Shown one piece after another: positions 2,932 through 34,079 of a stretch of DNA of 64,000 nucleotides. The DNA is from Actinomycetota bacterium (lineage in GTDB: Bacteria > Actinomycetota > Humimicrobiia > Humimicrobiales > Humimicrobiaceae), in the NCBI GenBank assembly GCA_034660395.1, contig JAYEJA010000040.1, positions 4,434 through 68,433 on the forward strand. The letters run 5' to 3'. Each line of letters begins with the position of its first letter. The first letter of the stretch is position 1. The notes beneath the pieces are model-generated. The model made no database searches. It was not told the origin of the DNA and saw only the letters and a list, made by a program, of their open reading frames with translations. The position numbers were made by a program, and so were the translations under genes.

Positions 2932-3165
2932 TAAATTTGCTATTTGCAACAAGATGTTGGATTCTAAAAAACATCAAGTATTTTAAATGGCTATCATGGT
3001 TGTATATACCCTAAATTTTTTTCTGCATGTCTTTATTTAGTATTGTTTTAGCCCCCCATGAAGTATTCGAAAGTTTAAATAGAAGCTTTTAATAAAAAAG
3101 TAGATACAGGTTAATTCTTTAATCTGCATTATTCTAAAAAGATAAGCAGATAAATACCGGTAAAA

Positions 3166-3573
3166 TTACTTTTCTTTAATAAGATATGTAAAATATCTAG
3201 GGTTTTTTATTGGTATATTTCTAAAAACTTTCAAGCGGAGAAGATGTTTATCGCCGGAAATAATCAAATCTGCATTTCCATTAACTGCGCATTCTAAAAT
3301 CATATTATCACTGGCATCGTCTTTAATAACGTTAAGTTTATCGCCAGTTTCAATAATCTCGCAGACATGAGAAACTCGTCTGACAAATTTATCTATATTA
3401 TGTTCAGGCCAGTAGAATTTGTTCCTGAGTATCCCGGCTGTTTCTCTGATTATTTCTCCTGAGATGATAAGCTTGATTTTACCTTTGATTGCAAGAGTTA
3501 AAATTTTATGGGGAATTCCTCTGAATAAGAGAGCGGATATATAGACATTTGAATCGAGAACTATTTTCAACAT
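3166..3573 (-). CDS. PIN-domain toxin (VapC-like; the 'PIN family toxin component' type)
   Basis: 135 aa. N-terminal IVLDSNVYISALL and acidic residues spaced as in PIN nucleases. Separated by 14 nt from the upstream RHH gene. Confidence 0.8.
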   Translation of the reverse strand: MLKIVLDSNVYISALLFRGIPHKILTLAIKGKIKLIISGEIIRETAGILRNKFYWPEHNIDKFVRRVSHVCEIIETGDKLNVIKDDASDNMILECAVNGNADLIISGDKHLLRLKVFRNIPIKNPRYFTYLIKEK

Positions 3574-3587
3574 AAAAAGTTTTCTTT

Positions 3588-3827
3588 CTACTTTTTAAGG
3601 TAATTATACAGGTCTTCGTCATTTTTTATTTTAAAATTCTTTGCAGTTTCTCTACCGGATTTAAATAGTTCAGACCATTCTTTTTCTGCGGTTAACTCAT
3701 TATAGGTTTTAAACATTTCTTTTATTAGGTCTGTTTTTGTGCGGCCTTTTGCCTTTGAAAGATCTTCCAATTCCTCTGCCATCTCTTCCGGGAGGGAAAT
3801 ACTTATAACTTTAGTTTTTCTATCCAA
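3588..3827 (-). CDS. Ribbon-helix-helix (CopG-like) antitoxin. The ORF track extends to 3887, but the real start is probably the TTG at 3827 or the GTG at 3836.
   Basis: KVISISLPEEMAEELEDLSKAKGRTKTDLIKE is a beta-strand plus helix, the RHH signature. SD AAAGAGG lies 9 nt upstream of the TTG at 3827. Paired with the PIN gene. Confidence 0.65.
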   Translation of the reverse strand: MDRKTKVISISLPEEMAEELEDLSKAKGRTKTDLIKEMFKTYNELTAEKEWSELFKSGRETAKNFKIKNDEDLYNYLKK

Positions 3828-4107: not shown

Positions 4108-5046
4108 ATGATGTATGGTTTATTAATAACTGAAGCTGGAACAATGCCGCAATTAAGTAAAGATAAAAAAAAGAATAAAGATTTAACAGTAAGCATAGTA
4201 AGTTATAACAGCTTAAATTTGTTAAGAGAGTGTCTCCGGTCCATATTTAAAAATCCGCCATCGGTAAAATTCAGGGTGATAGCTGTGGACAATGCTTCGG
4301 AAGATGGAACCGTAGAATTTCTAAAAAAGAATTATCCGGAAATATCCCTTATACTAAACAGTGATAATCTGGGTTTTGCCGCAGCCAACAATCAGGCAAT
4401 AAAAAAATCTTACTCGGAGTACATAATCCTTTTAAACAGCGACTGCGAAGTTTATGAGCGGTCTTTAGACAAACTGGTAAGTTTCATGGAAGAAAATCCT
4501 GAAGTGGGAATAGCCGGGCCGAAGATATTTAACAGCGATGGCACCATCCAGTTATCATGCAGGAAGTTTCCTTCTATGCTTAATGCTGCCGCCCATACCG
4601 TGCTGGGAGATATATTTCCCCGTAATCCTTTTTCGAGAAAATACAAGCTTGTCGATATAAGAAGGAATAAGCCCCTGAGCGTGGACTGGGTCTCAGGCTC
4701 ATGCATGATTATAAGAAAGAAGGCGCTGGAGGATACCGGATATCTTGATGAGAGGTATTTTATGTATGTTGAAGACCTTGATATCTGCTACAGGATGAGG
4801 CAAAGGAACTGGGAGGTCTATTATTATCCTGAGGCCGGGGTGATGCATCATGCGGCAGGCAGTGCGGGCAGAGGCAGGCTGGGGGCAATCAGGTCAAGCT
4901 TCAGGATGCAGAAGAGTGTTTTTTATTTTTTCTGGAAGAATTACAGGAAAAGCTTAAAAGTAATAACTGTACCGGCTATAATACTGGTTCTTGGATTAAG
5001 ATTGTTTTTAGCTGCCATAAAAAGCATTTTCCGGCTTAAGAAATAA
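4108..5046 (+). CDS. Family 2 glycosyltransferase
   Basis: VSIVSYNS..VIAVDNASEDGT GT2 signature. C-terminal hydrophobic segment. First gene of the sugar operon. Confidence 0.8.
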   Translation: MMYGLLITEAGTMPQLSKDKKKNKDLTVSIVSYNSLNLLRECLRSIFKNPPSVKFRVIAVDNASEDGTVEFLKKNYPEISLILNSDNLGFAAANNQAIKKSYSEYIILLNSDCEVYERSLDKLVSFMEENPEVGIAGPKIFNSDGTIQLSCRKFPSMLNAAAHTVLGDIFPRNPFSRKYKLVDIRRNKPLSVDWVSGSCMIIRKKALEDTGYLDERYFMYVEDLDICYRMRQRNWEVYYYPEAGVMHHAAGSAGRGRLGAIRSSFRMQKSVFYFFWKNYRKSLKVITVPAIILVLGLRLFLAAIKSIFRLKK

Positions 5047-5155
5047 TAAAATGAGAAGCAGTTATAGAGAGCCGGCTGATTTATGGGTTTTTTATATCAA
5101 AATTTTATATTAAAATAATCACGTAGTTTTTTATAAAGTAAAGGAGAATGAATTT

Positions 5156-6130
5156 TTGAAAATTTTAATAACCGGAATTGCAGGGTTTGTGGGTAAACAT
5201 CTCGCCTCTTTTCTTTTAAATAAAGGGGAAAATAACATTGCCGGTATCGACCTTGATTTTAAAAATTTTAATTCCGGCAGCGGTTTATCAGGGGAAATAG
5301 AGCTTATAAAAATTGACCTGACAGACAGCGACAGGGTTTTTGATGTTATTAAAAAGTTTAAACCGGATCAGATATACCACCTGGCAGCTCAGAGCTCGGT
5401 TGGCTATTCCTGGGAGAATCCGCTGGAAACTTTCAGGATTAATGTTTTCGGAGGAATAAACATTTTAGAAGGTATTAGAATGTATAACCCCGGCTGCAGA
5501 TTAATTGCAGCGTGCACGGCTGAGGAGTACGGTGAAACTGAAGATGAAGATAAAGCCATAGATGAAAATTTTAGTATTTATCCGGAGAATCCATATGCAG
5601 TAAGTAAATCTTCTCTTGATTTTCTTTGTTCAATTTATTATAAAGCATACGGGCTTGATGTATTCACAGCCAGGTCCTTTAATCTTACAGGGCCGGGACA
5701 GTCGGAAGGATTTGTCGCCTCCGACTTTGCAAAACAGGTGGCTCTGATAGAAGAGGGGATGCAGGAGCCTTTAATAGAGGTCGGGAACCTTGAAGCTTAC
5801 AGGGATTTCCTGGATGTAAGGGATGCCGTCAGGGCATACTATTATATTCTGGACAGGGGAAAAGGTAACCGGATTTATAATATATGCTCGGGTGAAAAGA
5901 GGAAAATATCGGAATTGCTGGATATGCTTTTATCCATGAGTAAAAAAGATGGTATTGAGGTAAAAATTGACAGGAGCAAGTTCAGGGCGCTTGATGTCAG
6001 GATAATGTACGGGAGTAATAGGAAATTAAGGGAGCATACTGAATGGAGCCCGGATTATTCTATTGAAGATTCACTGGGGGATATACTTGATTACTGGAGA
6101 CAAAAAATTATTCAGGCAAAAAATGAATGA
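5156..6130 (+). CDS. rmd: NAD-dependent epimerase/dehydratase, Rmd-like (GDP-4-keto-6-deoxy-D-mannose reductase, for GDP-D-rhamnose)
   Basis: ITGIAGFVGKHL Rossmann motif. YxxxK. Strong similarity as I recall it to Rmd (FVASDFAKQVALIEEGMQEPLIEVGNLEAYRDFLDVRD). gmd is two genes downstream. Confidence 0.6.
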   Translation: MKILITGIAGFVGKHLASFLLNKGENNIAGIDLDFKNFNSGSGLSGEIELIKIDLTDSDRVFDVIKKFKPDQIYHLAAQSSVGYSWENPLETFRINVFGGINILEGIRMYNPGCRLIAACTAEEYGETEDEDKAIDENFSIYPENPYAVSKSSLDFLCSIYYKAYGLDVFTARSFNLTGPGQSEGFVASDFAKQVALIEEGMQEPLIEVGNLEAYRDFLDVRDAVRAYYYILDRGKGNRIYNICSGEKRKISELLDMLLSMSKKDGIEVKIDRSKFRALDVRIMYGSNRKLREHTEWSPDYSIEDSLGDILDYWRQKIIQAKNE

Positions 6131-24465: not shown

Positions 24466-24815
24466 GGGGGCGACCTGGGTTCGACGGGGATAGGTTGAGC
24501 TTAAGTTGCAAGCCGAGTATCAGAACTCGTAAATAACTGAACCATAAATAAACGCTAATAATAAATTAGCATTAGCAGCCTAATTTAAGCTGCTACGTCT
24601 GTGAAGGGTTTCCTGCGCTTTTCAACAGGCGCCGATTAGCAGGATACTCCGGCATGATTTGTCTGCAGTAGTGCCGGGGGAAGTTTTATGCGGACTGGCT
24701 TTTTTAACCGTGTCCATACGGGTGAAAAAGTGAGAATTTAAAATGTGGACTAAGCTTGTAGATATTTAAGTGGCGATGTCTTCGGACGCGGGTTCGATTC
24801 CCGCCGCCTCCACCA
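24466..24815 (+). ncRNA. ssrA: tmRNA (transfer-messenger RNA)
   Basis: 5' GGGGGCGACCTGGGTTCGACGGGG. 3' GGACGCGGGTTCGATTCCCGCCGCCTCCACCA (tRNA-Ala-like T-arm and acceptor with encoded CCA). Internal tag ORF GCT AAT AAT AAA TTA GCA TTA GCA GCC TAA, giving (A)NNKLALAA. Confidence 0.9.
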
Positions 24816-26936: not shown

Positions 26937-27194
26937 ATGATTACGGTAAAAAAGGAAAACGATAATAAATTTCTGGTAACCGTAGAAGAAGGGGGCAGCA
27001 GTACGGAGCATGCCGTTAATCTGGATGATGAATATTACAGGGACCTGACGGGCGGTGAAATTGCGAGGGAGGAACTGATAAGGAAATCTTTTAAATTCCT
27101 ACTTGAAAGAGAACCCAAAGAATCCATACTCCCACAATTTAATTTAGGGATTTATATACTTATAAACACTAAATTAATTTATAATAAGTGTTAA
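26937..27194 (+). pseudogene. Small hypothetical gene whose 3' end is interrupted by the IS1595-family element. The native C-terminus resumes after 29939.
   Basis: The ORF reads through the IS left IR. Rejoining the flanks across the 8-bp TSD restores ...PQFNLNIIKSYFPEYEREIKI*, ending at 29990. Confidence 0.5.
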
Positions 27195-27201
27195 TAAGTA
27201 C

Positions 27202-27230
27202 TTGACAACACTATTATTTAGTGTTATTAT
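27202..27230 (+). promoter_or_regulatory. Sigma-70-type promoter of the transposase (TTGACA-17-TATTAT). A palindrome ACACTAttattTAGTGT fills the spacer. The -10 lies 6 nt from the ATG (leaderless).
   Basis: Read directly. The ACACTA/TAGTGT motif also forms the inner ends of both IRs and occurs at 27188..27193. Confidence 0.6.
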
Positions 27231-27236
27231 ATACTC

Positions 27237-28160
27237 ATGATGAACGATAAAAATAAAACAAAAGAAATGAGTATAATAGATTTTCTAACAAAAAGATTTC
27301 CGGATGAGGAAACAGCAGTAGATTTTTTTGCTAAAAAGCGTTGGGGTAACAAAATTACCTGTCCTTATTGTGGAAGTAGTAAAGTATATCACGTAAAAGG
27401 AAATCAACCATATAAATGTGGAAATTGCAACTTTAAATTTACAGTAAAGACAGGTACAATAATGGAAGGTAGCCACATAAAAGTAAGGACTTGGTTATTA
27501 GCAATGTACATTATGGGAACAACACGGAAAGGTATATCTTCTATTCAGCTTGCAAAACAACTTGGAGTAACCCAAAAGACAGCTTGGTATATGGCACATA
27601 GAATAAGAGAAGCTTGTAATAATTATGAGAAGATGAAAGGTATTATAGAAGTAGATGAGGCATATTTCGGTGGAAAAGAAAAAAACAAACATCATAGCAA
27701 AAAATATAACAAAGGACGCGGGGTTGCTAATAAAACAGCGGTTGCTGGATTAAAAGAGAGAAATGGAAAGTTTATGGCAAGGGTTTTAAAAGATACAAGT
27801 TCTTATACGTTGCAGGGTTTAATCCAAAAGAATGTAGTACCAAATTCAGCAGTATTTACTGATGATTTTCTATCATATATTGGATTGGAAAATAAAGGAT
27901 TTAAACATCAATCGGTAAAACATAGTGCTAATGAATATGTGGATGGCATAGCTCATACAAATGAGATTGAAAGCTTTTGGGCTCTGTTAAAGCGTGGTGT
28001 ATATGGAACATATCATTTTGTTAGTGTAAAACACTTACAACGCTATGTAAATGAATTCTGTTTTAGGGCAAACAATGGCAATACGGCATTATCTTTTGTG
28101 GATGCTATTTGCTTAAAAGCAAATATGAAAAATATAAAATATAAGGAATTGATAGCTTAA
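27237..28160 (+). CDS. IS1595-family (ISXO2-like DDE) transposase
   Basis: N-terminal zinc finger CPYCGSSK..CGNCNF. Family-typical blocks EVDEAYFGGK, VFTDDFLSY, HTNEIESFWALLKR. Confidence 0.9.
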   Translation: MMNDKNKTKEMSIIDFLTKRFPDEETAVDFFAKKRWGNKITCPYCGSSKVYHVKGNQPYKCGNCNFKFTVKTGTIMEGSHIKVRTWLLAMYIMGTTRKGISSIQLAKQLGVTQKTAWYMAHRIREACNNYEKMKGIIEVDEAYFGGKEKNKHHSKKYNKGRGVANKTAVAGLKERNGKFMARVLKDTSSYTLQGLIQKNVVPNSAVFTDDFLSYIGLENKGFKHQSVKHSANEYVDGIAHTNEIESFWALLKRGVYGTYHFVSVKHLQRYVNEFCFRANNGNTALSFVDAICLKANMKNIKYKELIA

Positions 28161-28954
28161 TGGTAAAGAAACAAATAATAAAACCCATAGAAAAAGATTT
28201 TGATGAAATAGTGGAAAGTGTTGGTAAACATAATCCTAAAAACAGGAATAATGTTTTCTCAAATATAAGAAATATTACACAACCAACATTAGAACTTGCG
28301 GATGGGTTAAAACTAAATGAAAAACAGAAAATGGACGGATTACAGCTTTTAAAAATGCTTGATAATAAAAGTATACCGCTTGTATTTTTTGACCCGCAAT
28401 ACCGAACAATTCTTGATAAACAAAATTATGGTAACGAGGGCGAGGGTAGACAAAAAGCGAGAGTTAAATTACCACAAATGAAAGAAAAAACAATTAAGCA
28501 ATTTATAAGAGAAATTGAGAGAATACTTATACCAAGTGGTCATTTAATGCTTTGGGTTGATAAATTTATAATTTGCAGTGGTATACATATTTTGCTTGAA
28601 GGGTCGTCACTTCAGCTTGTAGATATGGTAACTTGGAACAAAAACAAAATGGGTATGGGTTATAGGACAAGACGCTACAGTGAACATCTTATTATACTCC
28701 AGAAATTACCAGTAAGAGCAAAAGGGGTATGGCGTATTCACGATATACCAGATGTATGGACTGAAAAAATAAACAATGGAGATAAAAAGAATTATGTTCA
28801 TCCCAAACCAGTGGGGTTACAAAAACGATTAATAGAAGCTGTTACAAATAAAAATGATGTAATTGTTGACCCTGCTGCTGGTGGTTATTCGATATTGAGG
28901 GCTGCTAATGAAGTTGGGCGTAACTTTTTGGGGTGTGATATTATAGATATTTAA
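28160..28954 (+). CDS. Beta-class N6-adenine/N4-cytosine DNA methyltransferase (pfam N6_N4_Mtase-like), translationally coupled to the transposase
   Basis: Motif IV-like FFDPQY precedes motif I VIVDPAAGGYS. Conserved WNKNKMGMGYRTRRYSEHLIILQK block. The start ATG overlaps the transposase stop (TAATG). Confidence 0.75.
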   Translation: MVKKQIIKPIEKDFDEIVESVGKHNPKNRNNVFSNIRNITQPTLELADGLKLNEKQKMDGLQLLKMLDNKSIPLVFFDPQYRTILDKQNYGNEGEGRQKARVKLPQMKEKTIKQFIREIERILIPSGHLMLWVDKFIICSGIHILLEGSSLQLVDMVTWNKNKMGMGYRTRRYSEHLIILQKLPVRAKGVWRIHDIPDVWTEKINNGDKKNYVHPKPVGLQKRLIEAVTNKNDVIVDPAAGGYSILRAANEVGRNFLGCDIIDI

Positions 28955-29027
28955 AAGCTTGACATACACACTTTAATAATAGTAGAATTAAATTCAGAAA
29001 GTTATAGGGAGACAACCTATGAATCTG

Positions 29028-29061
29028 GGGCAATACTTAATTGGATTGCCCTTTTTCTTTT
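29028..29061 (+). terminator. Rho-independent terminator after the transposase-MTase transcript
   Basis: GGGCAAT-acttaattgg-ATTGCCC stem-loop followed by TTTTTCTTTT. Confidence 0.65.
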
Positions 29062-29150
29062 GGTGCGGATGGTGGGACTCGAACCCACACGAACCTATCG
29101 GCTCAACAGGGAGACAACCTATCGCGTCTACCAATTCCGCCACACCCGCA
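29061..29150 (-). tRNA. tRNA-like sequence (class II, Leu-type D-arm and long variable arm) with an aberrant anticodon loop. Probably a pseudo-tRNA or a captured tRNA fragment.
   Basis: Reverse complement is GCGGGTGTGGCGGAATTGGTAGACGCG-ATAGG-TTGTCTC-CCTGT-TGAGCCGATAGGTTCGT-GTGGGTTCGAGTCCCAC-CATCCGCACCA. Acceptor, D-, T- and variable arms are intact. The anticodon loop TTGTCTC has a pyrimidine at position 37 and an apparent anticodon GTC, which is inconsistent with a class II tRNA. Confidence 0.45.
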
Positions 29151-29216
29151 TAAATAGTAAATTTAATTCTATCATACTAAATTGTTATAATAAATAAATT
29201 ACAGTATAATAAGTAT

Positions 29217-29909
29217 ATGGCACTAATAGAAAAAGCCCAGGGACGTAAAGTAGACCAATCACCAAGTGGGTATACTCGCTTGTTTGGTATTTCCACGCTG
29301 GGAAATTTAATAAGTAAAGTACACGCAGCATGTATATCTGCGGGAACTGAACTTGAAAGATTTATTTGGGAAAGAGTAAACCAGATAAGCGACCTTGATA
29401 AATTTATAACAGAAACATTGCATAAAAAAGAAGACAGTGGAAAAATATGGGTTGCTATCAAAAGACAGATTAAACAATCAAAAACAATTAATTCAAAATA
29501 TGAACCAGATTTTATCGCTTTTGATTTAAAATTAAGAATGTGCTACGTCATTGAAGTAAAAGACGGAGACCAATTTGATACAAAAAAAGCAAGCGGTGAA
29601 CATAACACACTCCATAATTTTACAAATGATATTTCACACGACTTACCTTTTTCAACAAGAATTTTCATGTGTTGTTTTCATGCAAGAAATATAGAGGAAA
29701 TGTATATTGGTTTGAAAGGTAAATTTTCTAAAGATGAATTAATGACAGGGAAGGATTTATGCTTACTTCTTGGTATAGATTATGATGAAATTATTAAAAT
29801 ACGTACAAGTGACCAGCAGAGAAACCTTGATTACTTTATAAATAGTTTGTTATATATAGATACTATCAAAAATATGATTAAGAAAAGATTAGGCATATTT
29901 AAGATTTAG
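29217..29909 (+). CDS. PD-(D/E)xK nuclease-fold protein, a candidate type II restriction endonuclease partner of the MTase. Its stop codon lies inside the IRR.
   Basis: ..KYEPDFIAFDLKLRMCYVIEVKDGD.. has a PD...(E)VK spacing typical of PD-(D/E)xK nucleases. Leaderless promoter TTGTTA-17-TATAAT-6-ATG at 29182..29216. Confidence 0.5.
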   Translation: MALIEKAQGRKVDQSPSGYTRLFGISTLGNLISKVHAACISAGTELERFIWERVNQISDLDKFITETLHKKEDSGKIWVAIKRQIKQSKTINSKYEPDFIAFDLKLRMCYVIEVKDGDQFDTKKASGEHNTLHNFTNDISHDLPFSTRIFMCCFHARNIEEMYIGLKGKFSKDELMTGKDLCLLLGIDYDEIIKIRTSDQQRNLDYFINSLLYIDTIKNMIKKRLGIFKI

Positions 29910-30043
29910 TGTTTATAAGTATATAAATCCCTTAATTTAAATATAATTAAAAGTTATTTTCCCGAATATGAAAGGGAAATAAAAATATAATAAAAAGATA
30001 AAAAGGTATTTATATTTACACCTGTGGGAAAAGGAGGGAATAA

Positions 30044-33295: not shown

Positions 33296-33374
33296 CGGGG
33301 TGTAGCGCAGTTTGGTTTAGCGCACCTGCTTTGGGAGCAGGGGGTCGGAGGTTCAAATCCTCTCACCCCGACCA
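33296..33374 (+). tRNA. tRNA-Pro(TGG)
   Basis: CGGGGTG acceptor, anticodon loop CTTTGGGAG, T-arm GGTTCAAATCC, CCA encoded. Confidence 0.85.
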
Positions 33375-33380
33375 GTACGG

Positions 33381-33456
33381 GCGGGAATAGCTCAATTGGT
33401 AGAGCGTCAGCCTTCCAAGCTGAAGGTCGCGGGTTCGATCCCCGTTTCCCGCTCCA
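33381..33456 (+). tRNA. tRNA-Gly(TCC)
   Basis: GCGGGAATAGCTCAATTGGTAGAGC, anticodon loop CTTCCAA, CCA encoded. Confidence 0.85.
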
Positions 33457-33501
33457 ATTTTTTGAAAAAAAATTATTTGGCATAATGTTTTATGCGATTT
33501 T

Positions 33502-33578
<77 letters not shown>

Positions 33579-33694
33579 GAAATAAAGGCCGGAAGCGGAT
33601 ATGCCGCCTGGCAGGGGTATTGATTGGTTCTGGCAAATTTTTATACCGTATTATAAGTAAGGTATAGGTTGTATAATTTATTTGAAAATTATAT

Positions 33695-33771
33695 GGTGAG
33701 AATAGCTCAGCTGGCAGAGCACAGGATTGTGGATCCTGGGGTCGCGGGTTCGATCCCCGTTTCTCACCCCA
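33695..33771 (+). tRNA. tRNA-His(GTG) with an extra 5' G(-1)
   Basis: G-GTGAGAATAGCTCAGCTGG.., anticodon loop TTGTGGA. Confidence 0.85.
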
Positions 33772-33785
33772 TATTTTTTAGTTTT

Positions 33786-33862
33786 GCGCCTGTAGCTCAG
33801 CTGGATAGAGCGTCGGACTTCGAATCCGTGCGTCGGGGGTTCGAATCCCTCCAGGCGCGCCA
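33786..33862 (+). tRNA. tRNA-Arg(TCG)
   Basis: Same backbone as the Arg(TCT) gene, with anticodon loop CTTCGAA. Confidence 0.8.
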
Positions 33863-33907
33863 TATATAATTTAGAGAAGCCGGTATAGCCGGGTTTAGGA
33901 TGTAAAT

Positions 33908-33983
33908 GGGCCGTTAGCTCAGCTGGTAGAGCACCTGACTCTTAATCAGGGTGTCACAGGTTCGATCCCTGTACGGCTCACCA
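33908..33983 (+). tRNA. tRNA-Lys(CTT)
   Basis: GGGCCGTTAGCTCAGCTGGTAGAGC, anticodon loop CTCTTAA. Confidence 0.85.
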
Positions 33984-33992
33984 TTTTAATTG

Positions 33993-34079
33993 GCGAGAGT
34001 GGCGGAACTGGCAGACGCGCTAGACTTAGGATCTAGTGGGGTAAAACCTGTAGGGGTTCAAGTCCCCTCTCTCGCACCA
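33993..34079 (+). tRNA. tRNA-Leu(TAG), class II
   Basis: GCGAGAGTGGCGGAACTGGCAGACGC, anticodon loop CTTAGGA, long variable arm. Confidence 0.85.

Follow-up and report, generated by a model that had tools for sequence, protein, structure and literature searches.

The question raised by this locus is what kind of mobile unit has inserted into the Actinomycetota contig JAYEJA010000040.1, and why a tRNA-like gene lies between the methylase and the nuclease that the unit carries. The whole stretch of DNA that was analysed, 64,000 nucleotides (nt) long, is referred to here as the window, and related loci are designated by the letter L and a number. The unit is very probably an intact insertion sequence (IS) of the IS1595 family, of the kind known as transporter IS, in which the passenger genes constitute a complete Type II restriction-modification (R-M) system and are accompanied by a module of two convergent RNAs with co-varying sites.

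The ends of the unit, the duplicated target and the interrupted host gene were located as follows.

27139..27146, no strand: left copy of the target-site duplication, TTAATTTA, by direct sequence reading; present only once in L177, at the syntenic empty site
27147..27174, plus strand: left terminal inverted repeat, 28 bp and perfect, starting with GGGATTTAT, by repeat search
29904..29931, minus strand: right terminal inverted repeat, by repeat search
29932..29939, no strand: right copy of the target-site duplication, TTAATTTA, by direct sequence reading and from the empty site
26937..27146 and 29940-29990, plus strand: 5' part (70 codons) and 3' part of the interrupted 86-aa host gene

The sequence GGGATTTATATACTTATAAACACTA occurred exactly twice in the 64-kb window, in inverted orientation and with 0 mismatches (27147-27171 and 29907-29931), where no such pair is expected by chance. 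The perfect match reached 28 bp (27147-27174 and 29904-29931) and delimited a unit of 2785 bp, and no further copy of the terminal repeat was found in the window. Joining the flanks (removal of 27147-29939) gave an open reading frame (ORF) of 86 codons with thousands of relatives in a database search, most of them of 85-90 aa and many matching at full query coverage; the best one was 84% identical at 100% coverage, whereas the interrupted version of the window covers only 84%. The closest relative sits in L177/L178 within the order ilvD, 86-aa ORF, yggS, which is also that of the window. The flanks of the window are ~82-84% identical to this locus, and the two BLAST matches overlap by exactly 8 bp, at one TTAATTTA. 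In addition, the GC content was ~31% in the element and 43-45% in the flanks, a foreign composition, and a second sequencing run (L176) contained an identical 2015-bp piece of the element that ends just beyond the right repeat. The restored ORF, the syntenic empty site, the GC contrast and the L176 piece together show that the insertion is real, precise and evolutionarily recent. An earlier reading of the same DNA, hereafter the preliminary description, had reported perfect 25-bp inverted repeats, a perfect 8-bp duplication, a 2785-bp unit and a small ORF restored by joining the flanks, and had taken the insertion to be recent and precise. Its coordinates proved correct, with the repeat in fact reaching 28 bp, and the check for further copies and empty sites that it had proposed yielded no second copy in the window and the empty site in L177/L178.

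The protein-coding genes of the element and the promoter-like sites that precede them are given below.

27202..27230, plus strand: promoter-like site of the transposase-methylase operon, TTGACA-17-TATTAT with TG (promoter scan, 11/12 matches)
27237..28160, plus strand: IS1595-family DDE transposase of 307 aa with an N-terminal zinc ribbon (PF12762, PF12760, NF033547)
28160..28954, plus strand: beta-class DNA amino-methyltransferase (methylase) of 264 aa (PF01555)
29182..29210, plus strand: putative promoter of the nuclease, TTGTTA-17-TATAAT, ending 6 nt before the ATG (scan, 10/12)
29217..29909, plus strand: PD-(D/E)xK restriction-endonuclease-like protein (nuclease) of 230 aa, with its stop codon inside the right repeat

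The transposase matched PF12762 over the full model (E 5e-41), PF12760 (E 3e-11) and NF033547 (214 bits against a cut-off of 75), and the residues C42/C45/C61/C64, D140, D209 and N242/E245 were conserved among 31 homologues, so that the zinc ribbon is in place and the protein looks intact. With its DDE_Tnp_IS1595 domain and zinc ribbon, terminal repeats and 8-bp duplication, the element is a member of the IS1595 family. None of the 120 closest transposases carried an IS name. The ends GGGA(A/T)TTATATACTTATAAACACTAA are common to the window element, L001 and L003; written out as GGGA(A/T)TTAT, they resemble what we take to be the consensus of the ISNwi1 subgroup (ggnnatTAT), and the size would presumably fit the passenger-bearing "ISNwi1+", a lead rather than a test. 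Many of the closest transposases were found on contigs only 2.5-3.4 kb long, a length close to that of the element and typical of what assemblies give for repeats present in multiple copies in a sample, which hints at active elements. Sites equivalent to the promoter of the transposase operon were present in L001 and L003. In the promoter-like sites of both the transposase and the nuclease, the -10 box ends only 6 nt 5' of the ATG, with no Shine-Dalgarno sequence in between, for which reason the two mRNAs may be leaderless.

The methylase is coupled to the transposase through a TAATG overlap, in which the last A of the TAA stop is the first base of the ATG. Its motif IV precedes motif I, the beta arrangement, and its nearest solved relatives were M.MboIIA, DpnA, N4-cytosine methyltransferases and CcrM. 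Motif I (DPAAGG) and motif IV (FDPQY, a DPPY variant) were conserved in more than 90% of 81 homologues, as were HPxKP and DPxxG. The nuclease (ORF3), whose TAG stop is the first triplet of the 25-bp right repeat, had no Pfam or NCBIfam match; its 289 homologues share an invariant EPDF...E-x-K-DGD-x-FDTKK core, and its structural model best matched restriction-endonuclease folds, the nearest being Upx, EcoO109I, NgoMIV and Cfr10I. The two genes are also linked beyond this element. In classes of falling nuclease identity, from at least 70% to below 40%, the methylase lay directly 5' of the nuclease in 2/2, 37/40, 30/33 and 16/47 testable loci, that is, adjacent and co-oriented in ~85/122 of them. 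This persistence across nuclease identities indicates that the pair is an ordinary, old Type II system. Judged from methylase motifs I and IV, the separate nuclease core and the conserved linkage, the passengers are a Type II R-M system.

To establish how widely the element occurs, genome, viral and metagenome collections were scanned with nuclease profiles, which returned ~170 loci. A full transposase stood directly 5' of the methylase in 2/2 testable loci at a nuclease identity of at least 70% and in 12/24 at 55-70%, and at 40-55% it was present only as remnants (n=4). Since the methylase and the nuclease remain adjacent far below the identity range in which a transposase accompanies them, the pair predates the transposon. 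The trio of transposase, methylase and nuclease was found in L001, L003, L005, L006, L008, L013, L095, L096, L099, L109, L173 and L175, among others. In L003, L005, L008, L095, L099 and L175, repeats starting with GGGA and a perfect 8-bp duplication enclosed the whole trio, no two of these copies shared their AT-rich target, and several copies were located in phage or prophage contexts (lysins, repressor, tail genes). This recurrence, with own repeats and duplications and in phages, makes the window element one member of a mobile lineage and not a one-off; going by gene order and ends, the trio is a sizeable, widespread and unnamed mobile IS1595-R-M lineage of metagenomes and phages.

Two copies in this family deserve separate mention. 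In L001, which is otherwise intact and has perfect 26-bp repeats, the 8-bp sequences at the two ends (2538-2545 and 5319-5326) are TAAACTTA and ATAATAAT and show no matching duplication, which suggests recombination between two copies or an adjacent rearrangement. The contig L179, which belongs to the assembly that also gave L001 and is that of a phage by its terminase, portal and capsid genes, carries a decayed copy at 4676-5960. The left repeat is still present there, as are a transposase that has lost an internal part, an intact methylase and the small-RNA promoter, site and terminator described below; only the 3' half of the tRNA-like gene is left, and an HNH gene stands where the nuclease would be, the latter having been lost. 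L179 looks like a case of a phage that retained the protective methylase. A search of viral contigs with the repeat core TATATACTTATAAACACTA produced a single match (L171) without related genes, attributable to chance.

The spacer between the methylase and the nuclease of the window element contains the following features.

28959..28988, plus strand: promoter-like site TTGACA-18-TAGAAT just 3' of the methylase stop (scan 11/12, joint best in the element)
28996..29060, plus strand: predicted small RNA of ~65 nt, or 3' end of the operon mRNA (fold z = -3.6, promoter, terminator)
29006..29020, plus strand: 15-nt site AGGGAGACAACCTAT, exact complement of the anticodon arm of the tRNA-like gene (repeat and duplex search)
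29061..29149, minus strand: tRNA-like gene of 89 nt, derived from tRNA-Leu, with long variable arm, A73, encoded CCA, "anticodon" GUC and U37 (ARAGORN and Rfam)
29108..29122, minus strand: anticodon stem-loop segment ATAGGTTGTCTCCCT (tRNA positions 28-42), repeated at 29006-29020
29166..29174, minus strand: candidate promoter of the tRNA-like gene, an extended -10 TGATAGAAT, read by eye and not called by the scan

The tRNA-like gene scored 49.9 bits with the Rfam tRNA model (gathering score 29) and aligned over its full length with the host tRNA-Leu(UAG) at 33993-34079, with the D-arm, long variable arm, T-loop, A73 and CCA alike; it also keeps U8, A14, G18G19 and TTCGA. Three variants were recovered, each with a different loop: GUC in the window, where the loop reads UUGUCUC, CGC in L001/L002 (nuclease 84% identical) and GGC in L003/L004 (81%), the last two being the closest relatives, and all with an encoded CCA. 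When the three variants and the host tRNA were superimposed on the cloverleaf, 96.9% of the cells were paired, against 40-54% in slid controls, and 15/25 pairs had changes on both sides. Pairing has thus been kept by compensatory changes, and the tRNA shape is under selection. These genes have the cloverleaf and CCA of a tRNA-Leu but not the rest of a decoding one: their anticodons are not NAG or NAA, nor those of any long-arm tRNA, and a purine is not kept at position 37, which is U, A and U in the GUC, CGC and GGC variants, respectively. Minus-strand promoter-like sites were present just 5' of the tRNA-like gene in L001 and L003 as well.

Facing this gene, the predicted small RNA would consist of a 5' single strand or hairpin with the complementary site, followed by an intrinsic terminator formed by a hairpin at 29028-29051 (stem 29028-29034 with 29045-29051) and a T-run. 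The same kind of terminator was called outright in L003, and the promoter of the small RNA ranked first or second among the plus-strand sites of each element (window, L001, L003). The predicted RNA is convergent with the tRNA-like gene and would end where the tRNA CCA begins, an anatomy of seed plus terminator. The gene content that the preliminary description gave for the unit (an IS1595/ISXO2-like DDE transposase, a beta-class methylase coupled to it, an intrinsic terminator, a minus-strand tRNA-like sequence and a PD-(D/E)xK protein that stops inside the right repeat) held throughout, and its proposal of a mobile R-M cassette gains from the methylase-nuclease adjacency in most related loci, the fold match of the nuclease and the trio units elsewhere with their own repeats and duplications. 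In contrast, its treatment of the tRNA-like gene as an incidental passenger did not stand, as this tRNA-Leu scaffold with variable non-leucine loops and a co-varying partner is the most unusual part of the element.

The relationship between the two RNAs was apparent from repeats within each element. The anticodon arm supplied the longest within-element repeat of any part of the tRNA-like gene in all three, with 15 nt in the window (positions 28-42), 13 nt in L001 (32-44) and 12 nt in L003 (30-41), against a mean of 8.6 for shuffled sequences, and the three repeated sequences are unrelated to one another. In a control set of 16 ordinary tRNAs, no repeat (0) included the anticodon arm, and the longer control repeats (12-26 nt) came from D-arm and T-arm similarity between tRNA genes that neighbour each other in the host cluster. 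In none of the three elements did any other stretch pair better with the anticodon arm than the plus-strand site, whose duplex energies were -29.8, -23.2 and -21.9 kcal/mol (z = -7.9, -7.1 and -6.2) for the window, L001 and L003, respectively; this site always fell between a top-ranked promoter and the terminator, ~10 nt 3' of the predicted start and 2-12 nt 5' of the terminator stem. The spacer is the fastest-diverging part of the element, with a three-way identity of 17-50% compared with 60-90% in the genes, and the two sites have nevertheless stayed matched within each element. As the sequences around the two copies show no relationship, gene conversion is an unlikely cause and was discarded; the matched sites are most simply explained, we infer, by selection for RNA-RNA complementarity. 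Other origins of the repeat were also discarded. An att site or target duplication does not agree with an uninterrupted tRNA-like gene, a second copy without the tRNA 3' half and the lack of a recombinase, and inspection by eye revealed no DNA motif, operator-like or of the recognition-site type, that the three segments have in common.

Some further features of the spacer were noted. A perfect 12-nt inverted repeat, TAGAATTAAATT, at 28983-28994 and 29160-29171, holds the -10 boxes of both convergent promoters and makes the window module mirror-symmetric; it was not seen in L001 or L003. Beginning 7 nt beyond the Shine-Dalgarno-like AGGGAG of the complementary site, a 44-codon ORF (MNLGQYLIGLPFFFWCGWW...) at 29019-29153 extends across the terminator and the opposite strand of the tRNA-like gene, and its product would be hydrophobic in the manner of type I toxins. 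L001 and L003 lack it, so that it is probably fortuitous, and it was rejected as a toxin gene. An Rfam search of the spacer gave no T-box match at E values up to 1 and only weak sub-threshold shape matches, and a T-box leader or other Rfam family was rejected too.

The observed anatomy, insertion event, family distribution and co-variation of the two RNA sites can be accommodated in the following scheme, in which the expression of the RNAs, their pairing in vivo and a regulatory role are what we infer. By analogy with the family, the transposase would bind the GGGA-initiated repeats and move the complete unit into AT-rich targets, duplicating 8 bp; in the window, the target was the small conserved gene that separates ilvD from yggS, which was hit at its 3' end. 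According to the promoter and terminator predictions, the transposase and methylase would be expressed from one operon with overlapping stop and start, and the nuclease from its own promoter. As in known cases of R-M addiction, the pair would provide both defence and addiction, stabilising the element in chromosomes and phage genomes, and would gain mobility from the transposase in return. Only in the present sub-lineage would a strong promoter drive a short plus-strand RNA up to a terminator, opposed by the minus-strand RNA derived from tRNA-Leu, whose scaffold may be a stable, RNase P-processable carrier of an antisense loop. In relatives without the module, the nuclease start abuts the methylase stop, and the insertion of the module has therefore uncoupled the nuclease from the operon by placing between both genes a terminator and an opposing, probably strong, tRNA-type promoter. 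The RNA pair, the convergent transcription and the terminator could together keep the nuclease apart from the operon and set its level or timing, or else the stability of the operon mRNA. That the tRNA-Leu scaffold is a programmable RNA, with a variable anticodon-arm loop kept complementary to its cognate, convergently encoded small RNA, is a possibility that we put forward tentatively. The pair would then be a specificity module of the mobile R-M transposon in its own right, either an element-specific switch for the expression of the nuclease or of the transposase and methylase, or an RNA-only addiction module.

Several observations weigh against this interpretation. Both transcripts, including the 5' end of the small RNA, are themselves predictions, and the collections searched contained only three independent variants of the module: nuclease-profile scans, a transposase search and cluster look-ups for more of them returned only the window, L001/L002, L003/L004 and the truncated L179/L181. 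The 12-nt match of L003, taken alone, is within the shuffle range (maximum 13), and the hairpin at the complementary site is found only in the window copy. The folds of the spacer showed no alternative antiterminator, and no conserved third target of the small RNA was detected in the transposase, methylase or nuclease mRNAs, the best windows shifting between variants, which leaves RNA pairing without a direct link to the control of the nuclease. Most family members lack the module, which is thus an accessory. As for the R-M assignment, motif IV of the methylase (residues 78-81, 28391-28402) is DPQY and not the canonical (D/N/S)PP(Y/F), which its conservation in the family marks as a family trait and not a private mutation.

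Other explanations were considered for both parts of the element. The passenger proteins might form a non-classical pair, either another nuclease-methylase defence system or accessories of transposition, for example a methylase controlling the transposon ends. We regard this as highly improbable, given that the two genes are adjacent and co-oriented also where the transposase is absent, that the PD...ExK motif is invariant and that many of the best fold matches of the nuclease are Type II restriction enzymes; moreover, orphan methylases in phages are what is expected as counter-defence against real R-M systems. With regard to the RNA module, the tRNA-like gene could be a captured tRNA-Leu in decay that brought a neighbour's promoter and terminator, serving at most as a passive insulator or convergent promoter, with a repeat devoid of any pairing role. 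U37 and the non-cognate anticodons do resemble decay, the phage copy L179 has deleted the 5' half of the gene, and L099 carries at the same place and strand a different, ordinary-looking tRNA (65 bits) without a partner site, by which any antisense tRNA gene may be useful at that junction; the scarcity of the module in the family points the same way. However, the cloverleaf, A73, CCA, G18G19 and T-loop were kept by compensatory changes while the spacer fell to 17-50% identity, and each of the three differing anticodon arms has its exact match at an equivalent position in the element, with no homology between the flanks of the copies to drive gene conversion, so that mere decay seems rather unlikely.

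The two remaining explanations give the pairing a different role. In one of them, the plus-strand RNA is the leader of the nuclease, and binding of the tRNA-like RNA before the terminator alters termination or stability, so that read-through follows the accumulated tRNA-like RNA and acts as a timer for R-M establishment, comparable to antisense attenuation or a T-box. The position of the site 2-12 nt 5' of the terminator stem in all three variants is in agreement with it, a read-through transcript would enter the nuclease gene, module-free relatives co-transcribe the nuclease with the methylase, and R-M systems are known to need a delay in nuclease expression. Against this, neither an antiterminator in the folds nor a T-box or other riboswitch in the Rfam search was found, a separate promoter-like site lies directly 5' of the nuclease ATG, and any transcript reading through would cover the tRNA-like RNA in antisense over its full length even without the upstream site; a leader function therefore looks quite unlikely. 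The other one is an addiction module made only of RNA, in which the tRNA-like RNA, leucylated since bacterial LeuRS disregards the anticodon, misreads Asp or Ala codons and is the toxin, and a short-lived small RNA that masks the anticodon loop is the antidote. A stable tRNA and a labile terminator-type RNA fit the logic of toxin-antitoxin systems, the encoded CCA is present in the three variants, and, as such a toxin could use whichever sense anticodon it carries, the anticodon would be free to vary as long as the antidote followed. The leucine identity elements of the E. coli type, reviewed in PMC9976931, are apparently all kept (A73, G18G19, A14/A15, D-loop and T-loop contacts), and foreign anticodons on anticodon-independent tRNAs can be lethal, as reported for yeast tRNA-Ser (PMC6125640). 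Nonetheless, charging and toxicity are hypothetical, L001 has a C31-A39 mismatch and an R-M addiction system is already aboard the element. Moreover, position 37 is almost always a purine in decoding tRNAs, and U37 in two of the three variants argues against efficient decoding. We consider an RNA-only addiction very doubtful and prefer the reading in which the tRNA scaffold carries an antisense loop that helps to set nuclease expression.

Regarding known systems, IS1595 members that carry passenger genes are the transporter IS of Siguier, Gagnevin and Chandler (2009), work cited in both PMC3129680 and PMC2853133, and they share with the window element a single DDE_Tnp_IS1595 transposase with zinc ribbon, terminal repeats, an 8-bp duplication and internal passengers. 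The window element stands apart by its cargo, a complete Type II R-M operon translationally coupled to the transposase, to which this sub-lineage adds an RNA module. Furuta, Abe and Kobayashi (2010; PMC2853133) reported R-M units that resemble transposons in having inverted repeats and an 8-bp duplication, as shown by comparison with an empty site. The unit from N. gonorrhoeae likewise has a transposase-like gene of COG3677 (IS1595-type) and an 8-bp duplication, but it carries a truncated Type IIG gene and an S subunit, and its transposase is probably inactive (PMC2853133); in the window element, in contrast, the transposase looks intact, methylase and nuclease are separate, and the arrangement recurs in many lineages and phages. 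The pair itself resembles ordinary Type II systems (M.MboIIA, DpnA and CcrM for the methylase; Upx, EcoO109I, NgoMIV and Cfr10I for the nuclease) in its composition, order, sizes, catalytic motifs and fold, and departs from them in the low identity of its proteins to solved enzymes (9-15%) and in the DPQY motif. The preliminary description was right that passenger-bearing IS1595 members are known; its view that, as far as it could tell, this is not a described IS agrees with the literature searched as regards the trio, of which no example was found, and less so for the kind of element, because passenger IS1595 and R-M units with 8-bp duplications have been described (PMC3129680, PMC2853133). 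On sequence grounds, the core element is then a member of a widespread transporter-IS lineage of IS1595 with a Type II R-M cargo, a kind already described. Beyond PMC2853133 and PMC3129680, the literature search gave no specific precedent for an IS1595-R-M element or for a tRNA-like antisense RNA in an IS, and the tRNA-Leu-derived RNA with its co-varying partner is without precedent in the literature searched.

The RNA module has its closest parallels among the antisense RNAs RNA-OUT/RNA-IN of IS10, RNA I/RNA II of ColE1 and CopA/CopT of R1, which likewise present a short complement in a 7-nt loop beginning with UU, and in which pairing is element-specific, differing between close relatives with a co-varying partner. 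Unlike these, which are encoded in cis and antisense to their target, the loop of the window module is carried on a tRNA cloverleaf, and its site is ~100 nt away in a convergent RNA. The 3'ETS-leuZ sponge and the T-box are similar in that a tRNA or its precursor pairs with a regulatory RNA, and the T-box leader also ends in a terminator. The sponge pairs through its trailer and the window RNA through its anticodon arm. A T-box contacts 3-4 nt plus the NCCA end from within a large conserved leader, whereas the module would pair 12-15 nt of stem and loop and has no T-box features.

The element offers a compact route by which a complete R-M system can move as one transposon of 2.5-2.8 kb between chromosomes and phages of largely uncultivated lineages, with phages also retaining only the protective methylase. 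If the two RNAs do pair, the module would be a natural reuse of the tRNA scaffold for presenting an antisense loop of changeable specificity. It bears on the timing of nuclease expression in R-M systems and on the function of tRNAs with non-cognate anticodons on mobile elements.

The junction between methylase and nuclease was occupied by other sequences in several relatives. The ordinary-looking tRNA of L099 (nuclease 63% identical) belongs to a 635-bp insert at positions 3134-3769; it is 73 nt long (3278-3350, minus strand), has a CUACUAA loop (ACU) and no CCA, and repeat and duplex searches in L099 found no partner site for its anticodon arm. The insert also contains a hairpin with a ~28-bp stem and a consensus TTGACA-17-TATAAT promoter reading antisense into the tRNA. 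An unrelated insert of ~720 bp in L008 (3280-4001) showed GC-rich, structured-looking stretches and no Rfam match, and another unrelated one in L013 (3440-3890) holds a minus-strand ORF of ~160 aa. The methylase-nuclease junction thus seems to be a hot spot for accessory modules.

Finally, the host RNA genes near the element are a transfer-messenger RNA (tag ANNKLALAA) at 24466-24815 and a cluster of seven tRNAs (Pro, Gly, Arg, His, Arg, Lys, Leu) at 33296-34079.

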